This document shows positions 2,911-46,365 of a stretch of DNA of 49,857 bases, piece by piece. The notes beneath the pieces were generated by a model. That model was not told the origin of the DNA and ran no database searches. It saw only the letters and a program-made list of their open reading frames with translations. The position numbers were made by a program, and so were the translations under genes. The stretch's first letter is position 1. Each line of letters starts with the position of its first letter. The DNA is from Escherichia phage PH1062: sequence record OQ680139.1, one strand, 5' to 3'.

Positions 2911-2957
2911 GATGTTTAGCCTTTCGTGCGATTTATCGAAGTTTCATTATACAGGCA

Positions 2958-11817: not shown

Positions 11818-12771
11818 TTACTTACCTACGCCAACCAGCATGATGATAGTCAGCGGTCGATAAACGATCAGACCAGTAGTTTTAGAAGTGCACGGGACTT
11901 TAAAGTGCAAATCCTTAGCCTGCATCGGGAGCATATTGAAAGATTCCGGGATCTCGATGCTCATGTTCATTGGGTCTTTCTCATACGCCAGAACAGCTTT
12001 AGTGCCTGCACCGTCGATATCTTCCAGTTCGGAGATGGAAGAGATGGTGATGCCACCGTTCTGAGACTTGAACCAGTCCAGATAGCTCATCGTGGTTTCC
12101 GGCATACGCTTAGCGAGCAATTTACGCTGGGACGGCGGGATAACGATGTCGGTGATTTTATGCTGACCATTGGTCAGGGTTTCCATCTTCTCGATCAGGT
12201 CGGTCAGTTCTTCGCTTGCTTTCTCTGCATCAGCCCATGCGCCAGTAGCGGAGGTTACGCGGGTGATGTTCGGATGGTCGAAAACAGAGATGATTTTGTG
12301 AGGCTTTGAGCCTTTGAAAACCAACTGGTTAACCAGAGTTTCGTGACCTTCGCGCGCCAGAGTGGCTTTACGATCCGACAGGCTTGAACCAAGTGCCGCA
12401 CCAGTTTTAATCTCGTCGATAGAGATCAGCCACGCGTTACCGAGGCGGTGAACTCGACCAGATTCCAGACTGTGAGTAGCGTCAACAGTTGGCAGGTCGT
12501 CGGTGTAGTCAGCGATAATCTTCGCCATGGTCACGCCGTCAAACTTGAGATATTCGAACAGGTTAGCGGTCGGGCTAATCTCAGTAGTGACAGGGAACAG
12601 AGCCAGCGCGGAGGTTTCAGGGTAAGCCGCTTCATACTGGCGCTTAAGCAACTGAGTCATCTGTTTGACAGTCCAGATGCCAAGCTGGTCGGCTTTGTTG
12701 CCGCTTACGCCAAGCTGGCGCATACCATTAGTGATCATATTCTGTTCGAAAGCGTCGAGTTTCATAGTCAT
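11818..12771 (-). CDS. Major capsid protein
   Basis: 317 aa; size and position after protease/scaffold and decoration genes. Confidence 0.7.
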   Translation of the reverse strand: MTMKLDAFEQNMITNGMRQLGVSGNKADQLGIWTVKQMTQLLKRQYEAAYPETSALALFPVTTEISPTANLFEYLKFDGVTMAKIIADYTDDLPTVDATHSLESGRVHRLGNAWLISIDEIKTGAALGSSLSDRKATLAREGHETLVNQLVFKGSKPHKIISVFDHPNITRVTSATGAWADAEKASEELTDLIEKMETLTNGQHKITDIVIPPSQRKLLAKRMPETTMSYLDWFKSQNGGITISSISELEDIDGAGTKAVLAYEKDPMNMSIEIPESFNMLPMQAKDLHFKVPCTSKTTGLIVYRPLTIIMLVGVGK

Positions 12772-12823
12772 AATTTGTTTTCCTTTGTTTGTTAGAAAGC
12801 CGTGATTAAGTTCACGGCTCTAT

Positions 12824-12842
12824 AATAGCACTTTTTGTTAAG
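12824..12842 (+). promoter_or_regulatory. Copy of the 19 bp family element in reverse orientation relative to the capsid gene
   Basis: AATAGCACTTTTTGTTAAG on the plus strand, ~55-70 nt upstream of the minus-strand capsid start. Confidence 0.45.
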
Positions 12843-12865
12843 CGCGCAATAGATTTTTATGCATT

Positions 12866-12885
12866 AAAAAAGGGGCCGAAGCCCC
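12866..12885 (-). terminator. Intrinsic terminator after decoration protein gene
   Basis: GGGGC-ttcg-GCCCC plus T6 on the minus strand. Confidence 0.6.
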
Positions 12886-12894
12886 GTAATTTAA

Positions 12895-13506
12895 TTAAGC
12901 CGCCGCGCCAGGGTCGCCCTTGTCACCTTTTGGACCTTGCGGACCAGTATCACCTTTATCGCCTTTCGGACCTTGAGGGCCAGTGTCACCTTTTGGACCT
13001 TGCGGACCAACAACGGGAGCACCAGCAGATTGAAGCAACTGAATCTGAACGAGATCATATGTAGCATCATCAGATGATAACTTCTGACCAGTAAATTTAT
13101 AACCAGTTGCAATATCGCCATCTCGAGCAACTACGCCATCTGAGTTAAACAATACCTGCTTGCCGTAAGAGTAATCGTCATCAAGTAAACCAGCCTTAAC
13201 GACAGGAACCCATACGCGACCATGTGTAAGAACGTTTACAGCAATTCCGTCTTCATATTCACCACTTGCAGAGTATGCGTGGCTCATAACTGAAACGCCA
13301 ATCAATGGTAGAGAACTGTCAGTAGCAACCTTGACTACTTTGTGCCCGTCAACGGCTTGTACTTCACTCACTGCGAGAAGTCGCCCGACAGGGATTGAAC
13401 CATCAGCCGCGCAAGCCCCGTCAACATTGTAAAGGGAGGTGTCTGCGATTTGACCAGCATACGCTTTAGCGCGATGTACTGTGTAAGAAGCTTTGATTAG
13501 TGCCAT
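12895..13506 (-). CDS. Putative capsid decoration protein with C-terminal collagen-like Gly-X-Y repeats
   Basis: 203 aa ending VGPQGPKGDTGPQGPKGDKGDTGPQGPKGDKGDPGAAA; lies between scaffold and capsid genes. Confidence 0.55.
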   Translation of the reverse strand: MALIKASYTVHRAKAYAGQIADTSLYNVDGACAADGSIPVGRLLAVSEVQAVDGHKVVKVATDSSLPLIGVSVMSHAYSASGEYEDGIAVNVLTHGRVWVPVVKAGLLDDDYSYGKQVLFNSDGVVARDGDIATGYKFTGQKLSSDDATYDLVQIQLLQSAGAPVVGPQGPKGDTGPQGPKGDKGDTGPQGPKGDKGDPGAAA

Positions 13507-14699: not shown

Positions 14700-15479
14700 T
14701 TATGTGATTAATTGTGATTGTTTGCTGGTTGACATATCTGGAATTGCCCAGCATCGGCAACCGTAAGGCTCACCAGGGAACGGGTGATCGCTTGAGATCT
14801 CAATGCGTTTACCTTCCCATTTCACGTGCTGCAATCGCTCGCGCTCATCCAGTTTACCATGCCAGAAATAGTGAGTTACTCCCGCATCATCCAGGCGCTG
14901 GCGCATCAGTACGCTGTTCCAGGTGGACACAATTCCACGCGAGCGATTCACGGTCCAGCCAGTATACACCTTGTATCGCTGCTTTAAAACTTCATCAATC
15001 TGCTGACTGGTTTTATTGCGCACGTTTTCGACGCGAATGTTTTGCGACCAGTCAGAGATGATGTCTCTCGCTAACTTTAAAATACTCGCCTCAGCCGAAC
15101 CGCGCCATTGCGATGACTTCTCGCGATACCATGACTCATTGGCATTCGCCCCCAGCACCCCAAGCAAGATTACAGACTGGTTCTTTCCGCCACCTGCTTT
15201 CTTTGCCACGTTGAGAAATTGCTTTGAGTTGAATTTATAAATAGTCAGCGCCAGCGACGGAAGTGTAGCAACAATCGCCGCGATAAGTCCGGATGCATAT
15301 TCCTCTAGCTCACTTTCTGCATCATTTATTTCTTCGTCCGAAGCGTCGAATCTCATACCGCCAGTAAGCGATCTGGCTTTCTTTGCCACCTCGCCAGCGA
15401 ATGTTGACAATGAGCGGCTAAGTTGCCGCTCGCTTGCTTCGGGATAACTCCATTGATTTACAATGCCGTTAACCTTCAT
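14700..15479 (-). CDS. Head morphogenesis protein (SPP1 gp7 / Mu F-like)
   Basis: 259 aa directly downstream of portal gene. Confidence 0.55.
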   Translation of the reverse strand: MKVNGIVNQWSYPEASERQLSRSLSTFAGEVAKKARSLTGGMRFDASDEEINDAESELEEYASGLIAAIVATLPSLALTIYKFNSKQFLNVAKKAGGGKNQSVILLGVLGANANESWYREKSSQWRGSAEASILKLARDIISDWSQNIRVENVRNKTSQQIDEVLKQRYKVYTGWTVNRSRGIVSTWNSVLMRQRLDDAGVTHYFWHGKLDERERLQHVKWEGKRIEISSDHPFPGEPYGCRCWAIPDMSTSKQSQLIT

Positions 15480-16784: not shown

Positions 16785-16797
16785 ATTATACATGAGT

Positions 16798-17346
16798 TTA
16801 GCAATTCTCGCTATCCTTGCCGTGGTTTGTGTGATACCCAAGCTCATGCTCCGCGCTCTTCCTTGCGCAAACCGCATCAAACCAGTCATTATACCTGCCA
16901 AGATTTTTGTTCTTTCCGTCATCACCCATTATGCAAGCCATCCACATTTCATCGCGAGAATACCATGTAACACCTACGCAACCGCTTTTATTCCTTTTTG
17001 ATATTGAAAGGTTTCTGTTGTTTCCTCTATAGCTTTTAAGTTCAAGGTTTTCTATCCTATCATCATCTCTTACGTGGTTTATATGATCAATAACAAACCC
17101 TTTTGGAACGCTGGCTGCATTATTGTGAATACACCACACAATATGTGATCGTGGTATTTTCTTTTCAATACCTCCAATTGTAATCCACACATACCAGTAT
17201 CCGTTTGATTTATCTAGGTATCCAGCAGTATTGCCAACCATCCTATTAAACGCGTGATATGCACTCCTTTTACTAAAATCACTTTCTGGCCTTCCATTCC
17301 AGAAAACCTCTCCGCTTTTGTATGTAAAAATATCGCTGAATCTCAC
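16798..17346 (-). CDS. HNH homing endonuclease with AP2-type DNA-binding domain
   Basis: IDHINHVRDDDRIENLEL then NKSGCVGVTWYSRDEMWMACI; paralogous to 20784..21302 and 40529..41077. Confidence 0.75.
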   Translation of the reverse strand: MRFSDIFTYKSGEVFWNGRPESDFSKRSAYHAFNRMVGNTAGYLDKSNGYWYVWITIGGIEKKIPRSHIVWCIHNNAASVPKGFVIDHINHVRDDDRIENLELKSYRGNNRNLSISKRNKSGCVGVTWYSRDEMWMACIMGDDGKNKNLGRYNDWFDAVCARKSAEHELGYHTNHGKDSENC

Positions 17347-17396: not shown

Positions 17397-19007
17397 CTAA
17401 GGCGTGTTTTGACTTTTAGTGCTTTTCCTGAGTCCTGCGAGTTTTTTCATTCGTGCTACCGGATCATCAAGCAAGTTCATTTCGAAGTTTCCAGCATCAA
17501 CCACGTTATCCACTATATCATCGTGAGGATGGCTATCATCAAAGGTGAAGCCTACCAGTTCCGCTTCCATTTCAGTAAGCATTGGGTGAGATTCAGGAAA
17601 AACGATTCGCCCTGCTTTCATGATTGGTGCTGCGTCCATTGCACGCGTAACCTTGTCGGTATCTCGCTGCACTGGCGTGATGTCAATCGGGAGCTTCTTG
17701 TTAATTGACTGGATCAGGCCCGTACCGCTCGCTTTGTCTTCAATGTAAACCTTGCGTAATGACGTCTTGTTCTCCTTCGCCCACTTAAAGCAGTTGCCAT
17801 AAAAGTTAAGGGCCATCGTCTCAAGGTCCGGCGCTTCCCACTTACCGCGAATGCCGTCGATGAAATATACGCGATCCTTATACTTGCCCCACAAAACAAA
17901 GACGCTGTAGTCGTGAATTTCCTCGGCCTTCTGCGCAGTATCCGCAGTGGTAAAAAGGTATTCGAAGCGATCCGGTTTTGGCATATTGGCTTTCTCGCCG
18001 TCGCCGTAATACTGGAACCAGTCCGACTTAAACGCATTGCCACCAAGCGCAATGGGCTTCTGCTGATACTGAGACTCGAAGGTGTACAGGTCAGCTTCGC
18101 GCAACGCCAGTAGGCTTTCTGCGCTCTCCTTCGCGGGCCAGAAAGAGAAGTGCTCAACCCCGTCAATCATTACCGATGGGGACGATAGCACGTCTCTGTC
18201 AAATTCCTCTTTCAACCAGTCAGGAAGCGTGTCTCTGTATTCCTCAGTTACCAGCGCCGGAATGATTACCTGCTCAAACTTCATGCCACCCATACCTCCA
18301 TTCATCAGGAACCAAGTCGCATCGTTTACGTGTAGCCGCTGCTGGACAACAACGCATGGTGTCTTGTCATTCATTCTTCGCGATCGAACGGTGTTCTTTA
18401 ACAGCGTATGACCAGCCTTTCTCTTTACTGCTGAGTATAGGTCTTTCGGCTTCTCAGGGTCATCAAGCGTCAGCATACCAGTGAAGCCATCATCCATATA
18501 TCCACCACGCTTACCAGTTACCTGACCACCTATGGCTCGCGATGTTAACGTCAGCCACGCCTTGTCATTACTGTTTAGCGCTGTAATGTCTCCTCCTGAA
18601 GCCTTTGCTAGTTTGCAAGGCCATAACTCCTGGAACTCGTCAGATCCTATAATTTCACGAGTCCTGATCCCGTTGTCCTTAACAAGGCTATCTGAGAATG
18701 AAAGGTTCAGATTCCTTATCTTCTCACTCCTGAACATGCAATACACTGGCATGTGTATAGAAAAGATCTCAGTTTTGCCAGATCCGGGTGTGATATTGAA
18801 TATGATGTTTTGTATATCACCATTGATTATTTGCTCAACCTTCCAGCAAAGGTAGTTGAAATGCCAGTTCGACCTAAACTTTTGAGCCTGTATCAAAGCA
18901 AACCATATCTTCATGAAGTTATTAAATGAGTCCTCGCTCATTACCTTTATCACCGCCTTCTCTTTCTCCGTTAGGTTTTCCCATATCAAAATGTCTTTAC
19001 TAGCCAT
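17397..19007 (-). CDS. Terminase large subunit
   Basis: 536 aa; P-loop-like ITPGSGKTE, acidic C-terminal nuclease region; follows small subunit. Confidence 0.85.
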   Translation of the reverse strand: MASKDILIWENLTEKEKAVIKVMSEDSFNNFMKIWFALIQAQKFRSNWHFNYLCWKVEQIINGDIQNIIFNITPGSGKTEIFSIHMPVYCMFRSEKIRNLNLSFSDSLVKDNGIRTREIIGSDEFQELWPCKLAKASGGDITALNSNDKAWLTLTSRAIGGQVTGKRGGYMDDGFTGMLTLDDPEKPKDLYSAVKRKAGHTLLKNTVRSRRMNDKTPCVVVQQRLHVNDATWFLMNGGMGGMKFEQVIIPALVTEEYRDTLPDWLKEEFDRDVLSSPSVMIDGVEHFSFWPAKESAESLLALREADLYTFESQYQQKPIALGGNAFKSDWFQYYGDGEKANMPKPDRFEYLFTTADTAQKAEEIHDYSVFVLWGKYKDRVYFIDGIRGKWEAPDLETMALNFYGNCFKWAKENKTSLRKVYIEDKASGTGLIQSINKKLPIDITPVQRDTDKVTRAMDAAPIMKAGRIVFPESHPMLTEMEAELVGFTFDDSHPHDDIVDNVVDAGNFEMNLLDDPVARMKKLAGLRKSTKSQNTP

Positions 19008-21895: not shown

Positions 21896-21940
21896 ACTAT
21901 ACCGCTACCCCGATTCTGAGTTTTAACAAAAAGTGCTATC
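21896..21940 (-). promoter_or_regulatory. Family promoter A: 20 bp element, 19 bp spacer, TATAGT
   Basis: Sense strand AATAGCACTTTTTGTTAAAA; -10 sits in the loop of inverted repeat GGGGTA/TACCCC; followed by CCCATCGAAACGAA. Confidence 0.55.
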
Positions 21941-24473: not shown

Positions 24474-24518
24474 ACTATAGCTAATGTCTCCGAGCAAGTT
24501 TTAACAAAAAGTGCTATT
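24474..24518 (-). promoter_or_regulatory. Family promoter D: element, 19 bp, TATAGT
   Basis: AATAGCACTTTTTGTTAAAA; -10 in loop of GGAGACA/TGTCTCC; element encodes the last codons NSTFC and stop of 24501..24731. Confidence 0.55.
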
Positions 24519-25347: not shown

Positions 25348-25393
25348 ACTATATCAAATGGACTTGCGGAAGGTTTAGCAATTCGTGCTATTT
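25348..25393 (-). promoter_or_regulatory. Family promoter E: element, 20 bp, TATAGT
   Basis: AAATAGCACGAATTGCTAAA; -10 in loop of AAGTCCA/TGGACTT. Confidence 0.55.
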
Positions 25394-26157: not shown

Positions 26158-26202
26158 ACTATAGCAAATGCACTCACGGCAGTTTTAACAAAAAGTGCTA
26201 TT
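26158..26202 (-). promoter_or_regulatory. Family promoter F: element, 19 bp, TATAGT
   Basis: AATAGCACTTTTTGTTAAAA; -10 in loop of TGAGTGCA/TGCACTCA; element contains the TAG stop of 26198..26398. Confidence 0.55.
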
Positions 26203-39931: not shown

Positions 39932-39968
39932 AGTATTAAATGCCTTTCATGTTCGTTCGATTGACGTT

Positions 39969-40012
39969 ATAATAACAACCATCGAAACCAATGTTTAACA
40001 AAAAGTGCTATT
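39969..40012 (-). promoter_or_regulatory. Family promoter N: element, 18 bp, TATTAT, upstream of helicase operon
   Basis: AATAGCACTTTTTGTTAAAC; lies in the divergent region between helicase and 40024..40497. Confidence 0.5.
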
Positions 40013-40023
40013 GAGGTGATAAA

Positions 40024-40497
40024 ATGAATGCAACTGATAAGCGTACTCTTAACGGTAACAACGGAACTATCCGCACGGAAGATAAGAAGCAGCGTAAGCG
40101 ACCGTCAGGTTACTATGTTCTCAAGGATGAAGTAAAGGCCGGATTAAGAGCGCGACTTGATATTGTATTTGAGTTCTACGGCAGCAAGGCGAATATGGCG
40201 AAGCAATTAAAAGTTACTCGCCAGGCGGTCGAAGAATGGTTTAAGCGTGGCATGATGTCGGCACGCGGCGCTCAACTGGCGCACAACAGATATAAGCGAA
40301 CTGGCGAAGGGTTCCGCGCTACATTCTGCCGACCGGATTTGCAATTCGACGGCAACGGTAAACCGCTGACACTGCGTTGCAAAAAGCGTCACATGCTGCG
40401 CGTCGTCACCGAGGCTGAACTAGCCACTAAGCCTGAATGTCGCTCATGGCGAAAAATTAAAGCAGCAAACGAAGCAGCACGAAAAGCTAAAGAATGA
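40024..40497 (+). CDS. Cro/YdaS-like helix-turn-helix DNA-binding protein (putative regulator)
   Basis: 157 aa; YGSKANMAKQLKVTRQAVEEWFKRGMMSARGAQLAH resembles Cro/YdaS HTH; basic termini. Confidence 0.5.
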   Translation: MNATDKRTLNGNNGTIRTEDKKQRKRPSGYYVLKDEVKAGLRARLDIVFEFYGSKANMAKQLKVTRQAVEEWFKRGMMSARGAQLAHNRYKRTGEGFRATFCRPDLQFDGNGKPLTLRCKKRHMLRVVTEAELATKPECRSWRKIKAANEAARKAKE

Positions 40498-40528: not shown

Positions 40529-41077
40529 CTATCTATCTCCGTCACACCCAAACTCACCATGATAATAATTACTGGCTTTTAAGTACGCTTCACGCGCCGA
40601 CTCCTTTGTGGTATGCCTTCCTAGCCATATTTTTTTATTATTAACCCATATCCACGCCGTGTACTTCCCTGTTTGCTTGCAGAATCCAACGCCTTTTACT
40701 CCTGATGTATTGTGAGATGGTTTTTTCATATTTCTATTGTTCTCAGATGATGACGCTTCCCTTAGGTTTTCTATCCTATTATCAGTCCTGATCCCGTTTT
40801 TATGATCTATATACTTAGAAGGCCATTCACCTTTACAAAGCGCCCATGAAACCCTATGGCATTTAACGTCGAATCCGAAAAATCTGAAAACCTTATAACC
40901 AGATTTATGGACCGTTCCGGCCTCATCTCCAGCCTTAACCCTATTAGATGTGCTTTTTACCCAAATTATAACTCCGTTGTCGTATTTAAGGTAATTCCTA
41001 AGCATATCAATACTAATCAATGACTCTTTTGCCTTCATTAAATCAAAGTCTTTGCTCATTTCATTTTCCTCATTCAT
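40529..41077 (-). CDS. HNH homing endonuclease with AP2-type domain (start may be Met at ~41059)
   Basis: YIDHKNGIRTDNRIENLREASSSEN then SGVKGVGFCKQTGKYTAWI; minus-strand gene inside a plus-strand block. Confidence 0.75.
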   Translation of the reverse strand: MNEENEMSKDFDLMKAKESLISIDMLRNYLKYDNGVIIWVKSTSNRVKAGDEAGTVHKSGYKVFRFFGFDVKCHRVSWALCKGEWPSKYIDHKNGIRTDNRIENLREASSSENNRNMKKPSHNTSGVKGVGFCKQTGKYTAWIWVNNKKIWLGRHTTKESAREAYLKASNYYHGEFGCDGDR

Positions 41078-41121: not shown

Positions 41122-42047
41122 TGATGGATATGTATCAAAAAGAGGAAGTTATACCTTACATGAAGGGTCTTTGGAGGGAAGCTCTGCAATCAATATGTGG
41201 CCTTGATAACTCATACTTCACGAAGCGACATGGGCCATGCCCGCATTGCTTTGGAAAGGACCGTTTTCGCTGGACTGACAATATTAACACCCCAGGCGAC
41301 GGCGGCGCGATCTGTAACTCATGCGGAAACGACTCAGGGATCGGTTGGTTGATGAAGTTAACTGGTATGCCATATAGCGAATGCATAAACATCCTGGGGA
41401 GATTTCTTGGAAAGGTTCCGCAGGAATACATTGTCAAGGCGAACAAGAAAGCGCGCAGGACTCCGGTAGCTGGCATCAATGTCATGATGGCAGATCATGA
41501 AGCGGTAATGAAAGTTATGGGGCGCACGGAGAAGCGTGTAAATACGCCACTAAGCATGTTTGAGTCACTGCCTACTGAATCATTCGATGTCGGCGTAAAA
41601 CTTCGTGAGGATGGCGGTGAGAGCGTATTTCACACCATACCGTGTCAACTTGTGCATGAGGATGGTCTTGATGACGAGTTTTGCAATATTTTGATTATTG
41701 ATGAAGAAGGAAGGGAGTCATTTTACGCGAAGAAATACACGAGTTGCTCAGTTGCCGTGACTGGTAAAACTGAAAAGGCGATATACTTATGCCTGAACTG
41801 GATTGATGCTCAGCATATTGCATTTCACACAAAGCAAGAAGTGTGGGCCTGTTTCACCCCTGAAAACCTCGAGATGGTTGCGTACAGATACAAAGGGGAT
41901 CGGGAGGTAATGGTGGCATGCGAACCGTCTGACAAAGAAACTTTGTATATGGCGGATGACCGACAATTAAAAATAATCATCCCGAACCCGGGAGGATACC
42001 GTTCAGGAATGCAAGCCAAGCTGTTCTCAGCAAGCGATCTGCTCTAA
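41121..42047 (+). CDS. DNA primase (zinc-ribbon plus catalytic domain)
   Basis: 308 aa; N-terminal GPCPHCFGKDRFRWTD...AICNSCG zinc-binding motif. Confidence 0.6.
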   Translation: MMDMYQKEEVIPYMKGLWREALQSICGLDNSYFTKRHGPCPHCFGKDRFRWTDNINTPGDGGAICNSCGNDSGIGWLMKLTGMPYSECINILGRFLGKVPQEYIVKANKKARRTPVAGINVMMADHEAVMKVMGRTEKRVNTPLSMFESLPTESFDVGVKLREDGGESVFHTIPCQLVHEDGLDDEFCNILIIDEEGRESFYAKKYTSCSVAVTGKTEKAIYLCLNWIDAQHIAFHTKQEVWACFTPENLEMVAYRYKGDREVMVACEPSDKETLYMADDRQLKIIIPNPGGYRSGMQAKLFSASDLL

Positions 42048-42068
42048 CCGTCTTCGGGCGGTTTTTTG
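42048..42068 (+). terminator. Intrinsic terminator after primase gene
   Basis: CCGTC-ttcg-GGCGG followed by TTTTTTGTT. Confidence 0.65.
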
Positions 42069-42076
42069 TTGCCCAG

Positions 42077-42105
42077 TTGCAAGACTCATAACACAATGAT
42101 AAAAT
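42077..42105 (+). promoter_or_regulatory. Sigma70-like promoter TTGCAA-17-TAAAAT for side tail fibre gene
   Basis: Predicted start site falls at the first nt of the inverted family element 42111-42130. Confidence 0.45.
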
Positions 42106-42110
42106 CTATG

Positions 42111-42130
42111 TTTAGCAATTCGTGCTATTT
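42111..42130 (-). promoter_or_regulatory. Family element in reverse orientation at the tail fibre promoter (operator-like position)
   Basis: TTTAGCAATTCGTGCTATTT on the plus strand between two plus-strand genes; ends 19 nt before ATG 42149. Confidence 0.45.
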
Positions 42131-42148
42131 ACTTAAGGAGTTTATATT

Positions 42149-44758
42149 ATGGCTTTATACAGACGCGGTACAGCATCAATGGATGCAGACGGAACGGTTC
42201 ACGGAACCGATACAAAATGGAACGATCAGCTTGCTCTGATTCGCGTAGGTGCAACTATCGTATTCCTGGAGCAACCAATTAAGCTGGCGGTAATCAGCGA
42301 TATTGTGAGCGACACAGAGCTAAAGGCTATCTCTACGGATGGTCAGACTGCCGCTGACGGAAAGTATGTAATCTTGCTTAACGATTCATTGACCGTTAAC
42401 GGGCTTGCGCAAAACGTTGCTGAGACGCTTCGGTACTACCAGAGCAAAGAGACCGAGATTGCTGGGGCAATGGATATCATTGCGAGTCTGGATATGGATA
42501 ACCTTAACCGTATCATTGAGGAAATTAAGGCGAACAAATCAGCCGCAGAATCTGCGCAGAATCAAGCGGAGCTTGCTCGCGACGCATCCGCTGCAAACCG
42601 TGATGCCGCAAGTCAATTTGCAACATCGGCAGAGCAAAGCAAGAATGCAGCAAAGACCAGTGAGACGAACGCCAACAACGCAAAGACCGACGCAGAGACA
42701 GCTAAATCACAGGCAGTAACTGCTAAAGACCAGGCTAAAGTATTTCGTGACGAGGCAGAGCAACTCGCAAATGGTGCCGATGCATCAAATAAGGTTGATA
42801 AAGTTGGGTCCGCTATCAACACCCCAACCAGCGTTGCTGACATGCTAAAAAGATTGCGAGACACGATAAAGGGTGGATTCTGGCGAGTTGATGATATAAG
42901 TCAGTTTCCATCCGGGCAAATGGCCCCGTTCAGATACGGTTCAGGGATTTGCGGCGGCGCTGGTGACACATTTTTTGCGTTTAACGTTGACTGGCAGTCC
43001 TCTAGCGTAAAGGTTTTCTCGGGAAACAATGACGCTATCAACGGAGAGTCTGGATATATTAGCTCTATTGAGCTGGCTAAACTTGGTACAAATGGGGACT
43101 TGGCGATCGCGGACGGCGGGACGGGAGCATCTAACGACCAGGGGGCGCGCGCCAACCTTCAGGCGATGCACGAGCGTCAAGCACCGTTGTTAAGCGAAGA
43201 CCTTAACGTATTAAAAGGGGATAAGGCTGGATTTTATTACACTAACATAAGTGCGAACGCGACCACGGATAAAAACTACCCAGTAGGCAAGGCTGGATGC
43301 CTTCTGGTCCAGAAAACTGGAGCTAACGACCCAAAAAGCTGCGTACAGACCTACACCGAATATAACAGCGGGCGAAGATTCATGCGGTGGATCTCGAATG
43401 GCGCGACAGACACCTGGTCGAACTGGTACGAACTGTATAACTCTGGGTCGTCGCCGACTTTTAATGGTAAAGTGACGGTGCCGCAGGTTGCGGTTGGCAC
43501 GGCTACTCTGCGGCCGGTAACTCCCGGAGAAGGAAGCGGAGACGGGGTTGTTTGGGAATCCAGCAACGCCACGGAGGCGAGTTTTGGCATTGCGAATGTT
43601 GGCGGCGGGTCTGCGGTGTTCCACAACTATTCAAAACCAGCAAACGGGTCTGGCGTGGCTACCGGAGTGCTTATTGGTGGGTACGGGTCGCGCCCGTGGA
43701 CTGGTACTACATATACGGACCACTCAAACGTGTCGCAGCACTTCCTCATGGACGGGACCGCTTCGGATACTAACCACGGCGGCTGGTTTAGGTTGCTAAC
43801 AACCCCATTGAATAAGACCAATGCAGATCGTAGGCAAACATTCGCGACCAGCAACAACGGCGACCTTTATATAGGTTTCGATGTACCTATGGGGCTTTAT
43901 AAGATAACGCAGGAAAGTTACAACGGATTGGAAATATTAAACGGTCGCGGTCTTAAACAAGTAAATAACACAGCTAATGAAATAGCCTTAATCACCCCAC
44001 GAAACGGGGCAACAGCTAATATAAATTTCAGAGGTGTAGCTTTTAATGGCTCAATGACCGGAGTTAAAGGTGCCACTCAGCAGGGAGACAACTTGTGGCT
44101 GTCTTTTGCAGGGCATGACGGTGTAAGATTCACGGGTGCCGCTGCCGGTATGCGGATTCAGGCGTCGACTGGATGGTCAGCCACAAACACGCAATGCGGA
44201 ATAACGTTTGCGACAACGAAAGCAGGGTCCACGCAGAGGGTGGATCGGTGGAGCATTACGAGCGACGGGTCGCTGTCCCCAGCTGCGGACAACGCATACC
44301 CGATCGGCAGTGCAGTCTCCCGTGTTAGTGCGGTCTACGCAGCAAACGGGGCCATACAGACCTCGGACGCAAGACTCAAGACCGAGGTTAGGGGTTTAAC
44401 AGAGGAGGAGATGGGCGCCGCTAAAGCAATCGCCCGCGAGTTTGGCTTTTTCCGGTGGCTTGAGAGAGTAGCCGAAGAGGGCGACGATGCGAGGCTCCAT
44501 GCAGGTATTACCGTGCAGAAAGTGATGGAAATCATGCGGTCTTACGGTCTGGACCCCTTGAAGTATGGATTCGTGTGTTACGACGAATGGGAGGAGACTT
44601 CAGAGGTTATCAGTGACCCCGATGATAATTCGAAGTCGACGATCAATATAACCCCCGCAGGCAATAGATATAGCTTGCGATATTCGGAACTAAACGTGTT
44701 TATCGCCAGAGGACTTGAGCAAAGAATCTCAGAACTGGAGGCTAAGTTAGCTGGTTGA
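42149..44758 (+). CDS. Side tail fibre with C-terminal intramolecular chaperone (peptidase S74) domain
   Basis: 869 aa; Ala-rich coiled-coil repeats; autoproteolysis-type motif SDARLK followed by HAGITVQKV...YSLRYSELNVFIARGLEQRISELEAKL. Confidence 0.75.
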   Translation: MALYRRGTASMDADGTVHGTDTKWNDQLALIRVGATIVFLEQPIKLAVISDIVSDTELKAISTDGQTAADGKYVILLNDSLTVNGLAQNVAETLRYYQSKETEIAGAMDIIASLDMDNLNRIIEEIKANKSAAESAQNQAELARDASAANRDAASQFATSAEQSKNAAKTSETNANNAKTDAETAKSQAVTAKDQAKVFRDEAEQLANGADASNKVDKVGSAINTPTSVADMLKRLRDTIKGGFWRVDDISQFPSGQMAPFRYGSGICGGAGDTFFAFNVDWQSSSVKVFSGNNDAINGESGYISSIELAKLGTNGDLAIADGGTGASNDQGARANLQAMHERQAPLLSEDLNVLKGDKAGFYYTNISANATTDKNYPVGKAGCLLVQKTGANDPKSCVQTYTEYNSGRRFMRWISNGATDTWSNWYELYNSGSSPTFNGKVTVPQVAVGTATLRPVTPGEGSGDGVVWESSNATEASFGIANVGGGSAVFHNYSKPANGSGVATGVLIGGYGSRPWTGTTYTDHSNVSQHFLMDGTASDTNHGGWFRLLTTPLNKTNADRRQTFATSNNGDLYIGFDVPMGLYKITQESYNGLEILNGRGLKQVNNTANEIALITPRNGATANINFRGVAFNGSMTGVKGATQQGDNLWLSFAGHDGVRFTGAAAGMRIQASTGWSATNTQCGITFATTKAGSTQRVDRWSITSDGSLSPAADNAYPIGSAVSRVSAVYAANGAIQTSDARLKTEVRGLTEEEMGAAKAIAREFGFFRWLERVAEEGDDARLHAGITVQKVMEIMRSYGLDPLKYGFVCYDEWEETSEVISDPDDNSKSTINITPAGNRYSLRYSELNVFIARGLEQRISELEAKLAG

Positions 44759-46321: not shown

Positions 46322-46365
46322 ATTATAGCAAATCACCGCATTCTTGTTTAGCAAAAAGTGCTACG
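46322..46365 (-). promoter_or_regulatory. Family promoter P: element, 19 bp, TATAAT
   Basis: CGTAGCACTTTTTGCTAAA variant; overlaps TAG stop of the exonuclease gene; followed by ATCAAACGAAGTAAAC. Confidence 0.5.

Follow-up and report, generated by a model that had tools for sequence, protein, structure and literature searches.

The primase–tail fibre intergenic region

The window analysed here is a stretch of 49,857 nucleotides (nt) from Escherichia phage PH1062 (OQ680139.1), a nearly complete T1-like phage genome (Tunavirus, Drexlerviridae), and our subject is a short repeated element that lies in inverted orientation between its primase and tail fibre genes (Table 1). The primase-fibre region is 85-92% identical to that of T1, ADB-2, IME18 and other phages. 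The primase open reading frame (ORF) ends at 42047, at an intrinsic terminator which is annotated as such in phages Chapo and T1, and which shields the fibre gene from upstream transcription.

Downstream of the terminator lies a sigma70 extended -10 promoter, recognised by its two hexamers, a 17-nt spacer, the TG motif and conservation across relatives. Taken by itself the promoter match is not significant (3 found against 1.8 +/- 1.4 expected), and the annotation of phage Chapo also marks a promoter at this position. The inverted element begins 5 bp beyond the -10 and spans about -3 to +17 of the promoter (predicted +1 ~42112), which places it within the interval of about -35 to +25 where an operator overlapping a core promoter would lie. 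It ends 19 nt before the fibre ATG (42149). On the plus strand, positions 42111-42130 read TTTAGCAATTCGTGCTATTT; on the minus strand the inverted element reads AAATAGCACGAATTGCTAAAca. A previous annotation made from the letters of the window (the sequence-only reading) had described a TTGCAA-17-TAAAAT promoter starting at ~42111 with an inverted copy of the element at that point, and every one of its coordinates checks out.

A family of repeats in PH1062 and T1

The fibre copy is identical (0 mismatches) to the commonest 20-mer of the window, of which 12 copies are found at up to 3 mismatches (0 expected from 100 shuffles). The core ATAGCAC-N4-TG[C/T]TAAA occurs 21 times in the window and 23 times in T1 at up to 2 mismatches. 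Conservation is asymmetric, with ATAGCAC on the left and TG(C/T)TAAA on the right. A TAnnnT hexamer follows 17 copies at 19-21 nt, in 13 of the 17 at exactly 20 nt; the fibre copy has none. Forward copies placed like class II activator sites (see below) number 17 by the core search, plus one more, at 17408, by a position weight matrix (PWM). Their -10-like TATAnT is usually preceded by G at -14 and followed by a leader, a Shine-Dalgarno (SD) sequence and ATG, and these promoters have no -35 at 17 bp. The term 'inverted' for the fibre copy is thus justified, as 17-18 members of the family point at the downstream gene and the fibre copy points away from its gene.

This family corresponds to a known repeat. 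The 2024 re-annotation of phage TLS describes a 21-nt direct repeat, aaATAGCACnnnTTGnTAAAA, with 21 copies in subtypes G, T and A, which also occurs in T1, Rtp and Rogue1 (PMC11447400). The repeats were described as lying along the direction of transcription, ~76 nt upstream of start codons, and their function was posed as an open question, with a stoperator, an enhancer site or an UP element suggested (PMC11447400). Consensus, G/T/A subtypes and copy number (about 21 per genome) all agree with the family described here. The minus strand at 42130-42110 reads AAATAGCACGAATTGCTAAAC, which differs from the consensus at the last base only, and the fibre copy is therefore a member, albeit an atypically placed one, as it runs opposite to the fibre gene and ends close to its ATG. 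Reversed and core-overlapping copies are absent from the TLS account (PMC11447400), as is any likeness to the Escherichia coli site discussed below. The T1 GenBank record annotates none of the repeats.

Several other identities were considered for the element and rejected. The TTGCTA within it cannot serve as a -35, since it sits 22 nt from the -10. A symmetric dimer site does not fit, as TAGCA-N5-TGCTA is palindromic in the G subtype only and conservation is asymmetric. The sigma54 (-24/-12) consensus is TGGCAC-N5-TTGC, with GG and GC 10 bp apart; the AGCAC-N4-TGC of the element is 2 bp shorter and lacks the GG, and it has a conserved TATAnT 20 nt further on. Finally, the element's own TGcTATTTA was rejected as a fibre-directed promoter because it has no T at -7 and its start would land in the SD.

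The central 4 nt of the element fall into discrete subtypes (GAAT, TTTT and TAAT/AAAT) rather than varying freely, in the window, in T1 and at other Drexlerviridae loci. The copy at the helicase/pir locus is T-type in every genus sampled, and other orthologous promoters change subtype. These subtypes may encode different affinities or different factors. The G-type 18-mer ATAGCACGAATTGCTAAA occurs exactly in at least 120 stretches of IMG/VR contigs and, among the matches listed, nearly all are 41-53 kb, a T1-like size.

A further feature of most forward copies is a perfect inverted repeat with arms of 6-10 bp, lying between the element and the predicted start and usually around the -10 hexamer, e.g. 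AAGTCCA-tttgatatag-TGGACTT, or AAGGCCA/TGGCCTT arms in T1. The arms differ between promoters and co-vary between orthologues. Such repeats are found at 21922-21939, 24500-24517, 25374-25391, 26184-26201, 46347-46364 and other copies in the window, and at 1450, 2269, 3535, 4344, 4864 and 47616 in T1; the mean best stem at these promoters is 4.0 in the window and 5.5 in T1, against 1.2-1.4 in shuffles. As the 3' arm ends at about +1, the hairpin would lie outside the promoter's own transcript.

Correspondence with the E. coli marbox

The marbox is the 20-bp site of MarA, SoxS and Rob, which are monomeric activators with a pair of helix-turn-helix (HTH) motifs. Judged by sequence, asymmetry, orientation and spacing, the phage family is indistinguishable from it. 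The MarA consensus from chromatin immunoprecipitation sequencing (ChIP-seq) is gcactaattgctaaa (PMC5684230), and the G-type core carried by the fibre copy, GCACGAATTGCTAAA, agrees with it at 14 of 15 positions. The 20-bp degenerate consensus, A(not G)RGCACRWWNNRYYAAA(not G)N, is likewise matched by the fibre copy at every position that it specifies, including the flanking ATA and the trailing base.

A PWM was built from 30 E. coli MarA ChIP sites only (PMC5684230; consensus 20.1 bits, median site 13.5). With the median E. coli site as the lowest score accepted, it finds 26 matches in the window and the same number in T1; simulated sequence yields 1.7 (maximum 5). Of the 26 in the window, 19 are the commonest phage copies, which reach 17.9-18.9 bits and so outscore 25 of the 30 E. 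coli sites; the fibre copy scores 18.9 bits. Some 15-mers from other phage copies coincide base for base with E. coli sites to which MarA binds in vitro ('+++'), such as those of yneO, pheP, grxA/ybjC and ypeC.

The geometry agrees as well. Class II marboxes are described as lying forward, overlapping the -35, near -41. At E. coli micF, read from MG1655, GCACTGAATGTCAAA is followed after 20 nt by TAGAAT and, 7 nt later, by +1; the phage promoters have the same forward orientation and the same 20-nt spacing from marbox to -10, with the centre near -41. The fibre copy differs from micF-type sites in being reversed and downstream of its -10, and the other 17-18 copies have the class II arrangement. 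It is equally unlike class I sites, which are reversed and lie at -56 to -85, since a start at that distance would fall at ~42175-42204, inside the fibre ORF. The setting is also different from that of the E. coli marbox promoters, in that a virulent phage genome carries about 1 putative site per 2.5 kb. The marbox identity of the family, in class II geometry, is the main addition of this analysis; the sequence-only reading had not recognised it, and a literature search found nothing connecting the T1/TLS repeats with marboxes.

Table 1. Coordinates of the fibre promoter region and of related loci in the window
Feature	Coordinates	Strand	Remarks
Primase intrinsic terminator	42046-42069	+	Hairpin 42046-42063 and T-run; kept in 13 relatives
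-35-like hexamer TTGCAA	42077-42082	+	Fibre promoter; TTGCAA(G) invariant in 14 Tunavirus sequences, adjoining spacer variable
Extended -10 TGaTAAAAT	42097-42105	+	TG 42097-98, hexamer TAAAAT 42100-42105; 17-nt spacer from -35
Predicted fibre transcription start window	42110-42114	+	Placed 5-9 nt 3' of the -10 hexamer
Inverted family element (marbox-like site)	42109-42130	-	Proposed operator; 18-mer core 42111-42128; 20-bp marbox frame 42109-42128
Shine-Dalgarno AAGGAG	42135-42140	+	Fibre gene
Tail fibre gene	42149-44758	+	869 aa; C-terminal Peptidase_S74 / endosialidase chaperone domain; tail fibre by annotation in relatives
Second inverted copy	12825-12842	+	Fills spacer of major capsid promoter TTGCGC-16-TGcTATTAT (gene on minus)
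Forward copy	2915-2932	-	Between TATAAT (13 nt) and ATG of J-like tail-tip gene, overlapping SD
Helicase/pir family copy	39994-40011	-	Class II-type helicase promoter; reverse between promoter and SD of divergent pir-like gene
pir-like regulator gene	40024-40497	+	157 aa; Cro-type single HTH; candidate factor encoded by the phage

Conservation of the fibre promoter region

The fibre promoter region was compared among 14 Tunavirus genomes (the window and 13 further genomes), and other genera were compared at Drexlerviridae loci. The 13 Tunavirus relatives keep the terminator, TTGCAAG, ACAATGATAAAATC and (C/T)TTAGCAATT(C/A)GTGCTATTTAC(T/C)TAAGGAG, and ACAATGATAAAATC, which covers the extended -10 region, is invariant in 14/14 sequences. 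Changes are concentrated in two places, the promoter spacer (42084-42092) and the 4 nt that separate the -10 from the element. Fixed hexamers and a fixed element around a free spacer are the pattern expected of a working sigma70 promoter combined with a working protein site.

The intergenic DNA of other genera cannot be aligned, yet the same order of parts is found there again: terminator, extended -10, 5-12 nt, reverse marbox, SD and fibre ATG. The promoters in the fibre slot of these genera carry TGcTATTAT, TGaTACAAT or TTGCAT-17-CATAAT, which by their sequence are functionally equivalent. Reverse fibre marboxes were found in IME347 (Badaguanvirus, 17.1 bits), U136B (Tlsvirus, 16.4 bits), EcoS-95 (Warwickvirus, 15.2 bits), 12210I (Veterinaerplatzvirus, 15.2 bits) and Raoultella phage K50 (13.8 bits), and marginally in Vc1 (13.1 bits) and Motto (10.7 bits). 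In these copies the central bases differ and the marbox-defining positions are retained, and the primases of the lineages concerned are only 44-71% identical.

The fibre copy as a putative operator

We propose that the fibre element is a real binding site that works as an operator, an interpretation for which, on the sequence, we rate the chances as even. The roughly 18 class II-type forward copies, near -41, would replace the -35 for small early genes and for genes of replication and recombination. The fibre gene would instead depend on its ordinary extended -10 promoter just after the primase terminator, where a protein seated on the inverted marbox would block RNA polymerase binding, promoter opening or escape. 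A factor that turns on the class II promoters would then hold the fibre promoter down until its occupancy falls. That the same factor activates the other promoters is plausible, because the forward copies occupy precisely the position at which a class II activator binds. Relief late in infection might come, speculatively, from titration of the factor on replicated phage DNA or from decay of unstable MarA/SoxS. The operator proposed in the sequence-only reading thus gains from position and from comparison across genera, and its repressive effect is suggested by analogy.

That analogy is with E. coli pbpG, where a marbox overlapping the core promoter can repress in the presence of MarA, SoxS or Rob. 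Further cases of repression by these proteins at core-overlapping marboxes are rob, purA and hdeA. The fibre promoter resembles pbpG in having a marbox within -35 to +25 of a sigma70 promoter, for proteins that activate elsewhere. It differs in that the pbpG-type sites overlap the spacer or the -35 and the fibre copy covers the start site; the capsid copy at 12825-12842 is closer to pbpG and rob. A precedent for negative control within the phages themselves is the T1 pir promoter (Ppir), which is negatively regulated and has a reverse copy downstream of its -10.

Other late promoters look built on the same plan as the fibre promoter, notably those of the capsid and J genes. The arrangement at the capsid promoter is the same in T1 and TLS (DR7). 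The J-gene copy (2915-2932) has no -10 at the family spacing, and its layout is again the same in T1 and TLS (DR8). In T1, further copies overlap the terS -10 and sit upstream of the SD of the tape-measure chaperone. In general, late units start with a terminator and an ordinary sigma70 promoter, and in several of them a marbox of one orientation or the other lies in the core or just behind it. Core-overlapping copies of mixed orientation fit steric control better than oriented activation.

Some points weigh against an operator. The start site is a predicted one, and binding and expression are deduced from sequence; protein binding in vivo, its negative effect and the identity of the protein are what we infer. 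The reverse fibre marbox is absent in AHS24, egaa and KP36 among the Drexlerviridae fibre loci scored, and as it is missing or decayed in some members of the family the arrangement is dispensable. Activation by MarA from a site within a core promoter is also known, as at flgBP2 (PMC12781870), and the orientation rules for marboxes are not absolute (yadG), so that the sign of the effect is not guaranteed.

The flgBP2 case also suggests that the site could act positively or architecturally, by aiding opening next to the -10, or as a barrier against read-through. At flgBP2, MarA activates within the core promoter by perturbing adjacent base pairing (PMC12781870); the fibre element begins just 5 bp from its -10, and non-canonical positions can activate, as at yadG. 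However, the flgBP2 marbox lies inside the core, upstream of the melted region, and works with the melting-defective sigma28, whereas the fibre site extends over +1 to about +17, a stretch in which polymerase has to grip the downstream duplex, and the fibre promoter already has a good extended -10. The distance from -10 to element is 11-12 bp in other genera against 5 bp here, which argues against a precise helical requirement. We therefore regard a positive or architectural role as unlikely.

Alternatives considered: antisense transcription, function as RNA, or a relic

Three further explanations dispense with an operator, and each has something in its favour. The sequence-only reading had offered antisense transcription into the primase gene as its alternative, i.e. 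the inverted element as part of a class II-type minus-strand promoter. It had also held that there was no room for a -10 in the element's own orientation, which is misleading, as the element faces the primase side and room exists there. The hexamer found 20 nt after the element is TATGAG (the reverse complement of 42085-42090), which has TA at its first two positions as a -10 does. In each of the 14 Tunavirus genomes this hexamer carries G at -7, with free variation elsewhere (TACCTG in T1, TACACG, TATCAG, TATTGG), other genera have nothing -10-like at that spacing, and the varying bases are the spacer of the sense promoter. A promoter scan gave no minus-strand promoter here, and there is no gene or conserved ORF to express. 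An antisense promoter is rejected on this conservation, and we consider it extremely improbable.

The element could instead act as RNA, since it would form about nt 1-20 of the fibre mRNA, abutting the SD, and a small 5-bp hairpin (UAGCA/UGCUA) is predicted in the 5' untranslated region (UTR), where it might affect stability or translation. Yet the fold is no better than that of shuffles (-6.6 kcal/mol, z = -0.19), U136B and K50 have lost the pairing but kept the bases that define a marbox, and other copies of the family lie upstream of their start sites. A search of Rfam returned no match. On the fold, the broken pairing and the Rfam result an RNA element is rejected, and we judge this explanation very improbable. 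There is slightly more to be said for a relic without present function, left by duplication of a divergent promoter region or kept as a homology patch for module exchange. The pir/helicase region has the same layout of reverse element plus SD, the fibre leader of U136B (TTTAACAAAAAATGCTATGAGGTG) is very similar to that of the pir gene in the window (TTTAACAAAAAGTGCTATTGAGGTG), and the element has been lost in some lineages, in a setting where fibre genes are mosaic. Against this, the marbox-defining positions are kept between lineages whose surrounding DNA is unalignable and whose primases have diverged as far as described above, and the design recurs at other late promoters. A relic is thus improbable too, if marginally less so than an RNA element.

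Candidate factors: host MarA, SoxS and Rob or the phage protein Pir

If the fibre element is an operator, its protein may come from the host or from the phage. From the sequence evidence a host factor (MarA, SoxS or Rob) is somewhat favoured over the phage protein Pir, given the identity of the sites with marboxes, the class II geometry, the independence of the T1 orf65 promoter (Porf65) from Pir, and the reasoning that late genes should be kept down by a factor that is present early and declines. No AraC/MarA-like protein was found in the window, either by Pfam on 9 ORFs or with a profile from three query sequences (MarA, SoxS and Rob) against all six-frame ORFs; the best match had E = 0.019 and 10 bits, in a doubtful ORF.

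The candidate from the phage is the protein encoded beside the helicase gene, which is homologous to T1 Pir/Orf23 (phmmer 2.8e-41). Its structural model has a predicted local distance difference test (pLDDT) score of 87.8, and the best matches in the PDB are Xfaso-1 Cro and N15 Cro. In T1 reporter assays Pir activates the dam and hol promoters (Pdam, Phol) and represses Ppir and the recE promoter (PrecE) (PMC6737242). Orf65 activates its own promoter, which is independent of Pir, and represses Ppir (PMC6737242). When the T1 promoters were mapped, Pdam and Porf65 proved to be class II-type marbox promoters, Phol and PrecE have no marbox, and Ppir consists of TTGAAT-17-TATAAT and, 20 nt downstream, a reverse marbox common to it and the divergent helicase promoter; the -10s of these two T1 promoters overlap. 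A Pir box common to the four T1 reporter promoters was looked for and none was recognised, and T1 Orf65, the other reported regulator, has no homologue in the window.

The helicase and pir promoters of the window (39960-40023) have -10s that overlap on opposite strands, TATTAT on the minus and TATAAT on the plus strand. Activation of the helicase promoter should therefore exclude polymerase from the pir promoter, which offers a simple route to negative regulation of pir. The marbox between them is found at all 11 sampled Drexlerviridae loci outside Tunavirus, and its T1 equivalent was mapped.

Pir would serve the same operator function as a dimer on TAGCA-N5-TGCTA, with the likeness to marboxes being mimicry or coincidence. 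In T1 it activates Pdam, which has a class II-type copy, and represses Ppir, with its reverse copy downstream of the -10, and half-sites about 10 bp apart suit an HTH dimer. The pir homologue stands beside the helicase marbox at 11/11 Drexlerviridae loci outside Tunavirus. Several observations nevertheless count against it. Conservation is asymmetric, with C7 and A17-18 lacking symmetric partners, which fits a monomer with two HTH motifs and not a symmetric dimer, and the model of Pir predicts a single Cro-like HTH. Phol and PrecE are regulated by Pir in the absence of a marbox and Porf65 has a perfect marbox and is unaffected, so the targets of Pir do not coincide with the promoters that carry the element. 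If a repressor built up in the course of infection, it would also shut the late structural genes off when they are needed. We consider Pir a doubtful, if real, candidate.

The case for a host factor has weaknesses of its own, and the first two of these speak for Pir. Pir occurs in every marbox-bearing phage sampled, and two outgroups without marboxes, Skatevirus BS5 and Vibrio phage 1.278.O, have no Pir. The elements persist in Drexlerviridae whose recorded hosts are Vibrio cholerae (Vc1) and Pseudomonas aeruginosa (Motto). MarA and SoxS are low in abundance unless the cell is stressed, and Rob is for the most part sequestered. Both Vc1 and Motto have marbox-type promoters at the helicase and VRR-NUC/dam positions, at 16.6-18.9 bits; either their host records are doubtful or the element is independent of enterobacterial MarA, SoxS and Rob.

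Further observations at related loci

The 5' UTR of the capsid gene (12771-12900 minus; 15045-15145 in T1) contains a hairpin, agccgtga/tcacggct, directly after the marbox and before the SD, with a T-run in T1. It could be an attenuator or a stabilising 5' hairpin. The class II-type promoter at 17408-17425, AAAGCACTAAAAGTCAAA-20-TATAAT, falls within the large terminase gene, at its 3' end, and precedes a 182-aa ORF (16798-17346). The portal gene is preceded by a TATAAT that has a degenerate marbox (ATAGCGAG...) at 16797-16814 just 6 nt away. An HNH endonuclease gene with an AP2 domain (40529-41077, minus) separates the pir-like gene from the primase gene, and the marbox that precedes primase in T1 and other genera persists at 40474-40491, in the 3' end of the pir ORF, with no -10 at the family spacing.

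Comparison with known systems and significance

Two phage systems invite comparison. The T4 MotA box has its centre at -30, depends on MotA and AsiA, both encoded by the phage, and defines a temporal class. As is generally known of MotA boxes, a phage-wide upstream box replaces the -35 and the sigma70 -10 is kept, as in the family described here. In contrast to the T4 system, the box of this family is centred near -41, proteins like MotA and AsiA are not in evidence, and the box matches the site of a host activator. The stoperators of mycobacteriophage L5 are likewise many asymmetric intergenic copies of a site spread through a phage genome. They are 13-bp sites for a prophage repressor, oriented with transcription, that block elongation, unlike the present copies, which have mixed orientation at late promoters and occur in a phage of virulent type; no repressor like that of L5 was identified. 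The fixed distance of 20 nt from most copies to a -10 downstream suggests promoters rather than roadblocks.

It is conceivable, though we regard it as rather doubtful, that the Drexlerviridae wire about 20 promoters per genome to MarA, SoxS and Rob, with class II copies activating early and middle genes and core-overlapping copies holding back late genes, the switch being a loss of activator occupancy through titration on replicating phage DNA or through Lon-dependent decay of MarA/SoxS after host shut-off. If true, this would answer the published question on the T1/TLS 21-nt repeats and tie phage development to the antibiotic and oxidative-stress state of the host. T1-like phages are frequent contaminants in laboratories and industry, and they also find use in phage therapy. 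The marbox reading offers a testable hypothesis, that one factor activates about 18 promoters lacking a -35 and represses a few late ones. The inverted fibre copy is the cleanest test case, as it has no divergent gene and no alternative promoter. Should Pir be the factor, a phage protein would mimic marbox specificity and could rewire the host mar regulon. Should it be MarA, SoxS or Rob, the development of these phages would depend on the antibiotic-tolerance regulon of the host, with consequences for phage-antibiotic combination and for host range.

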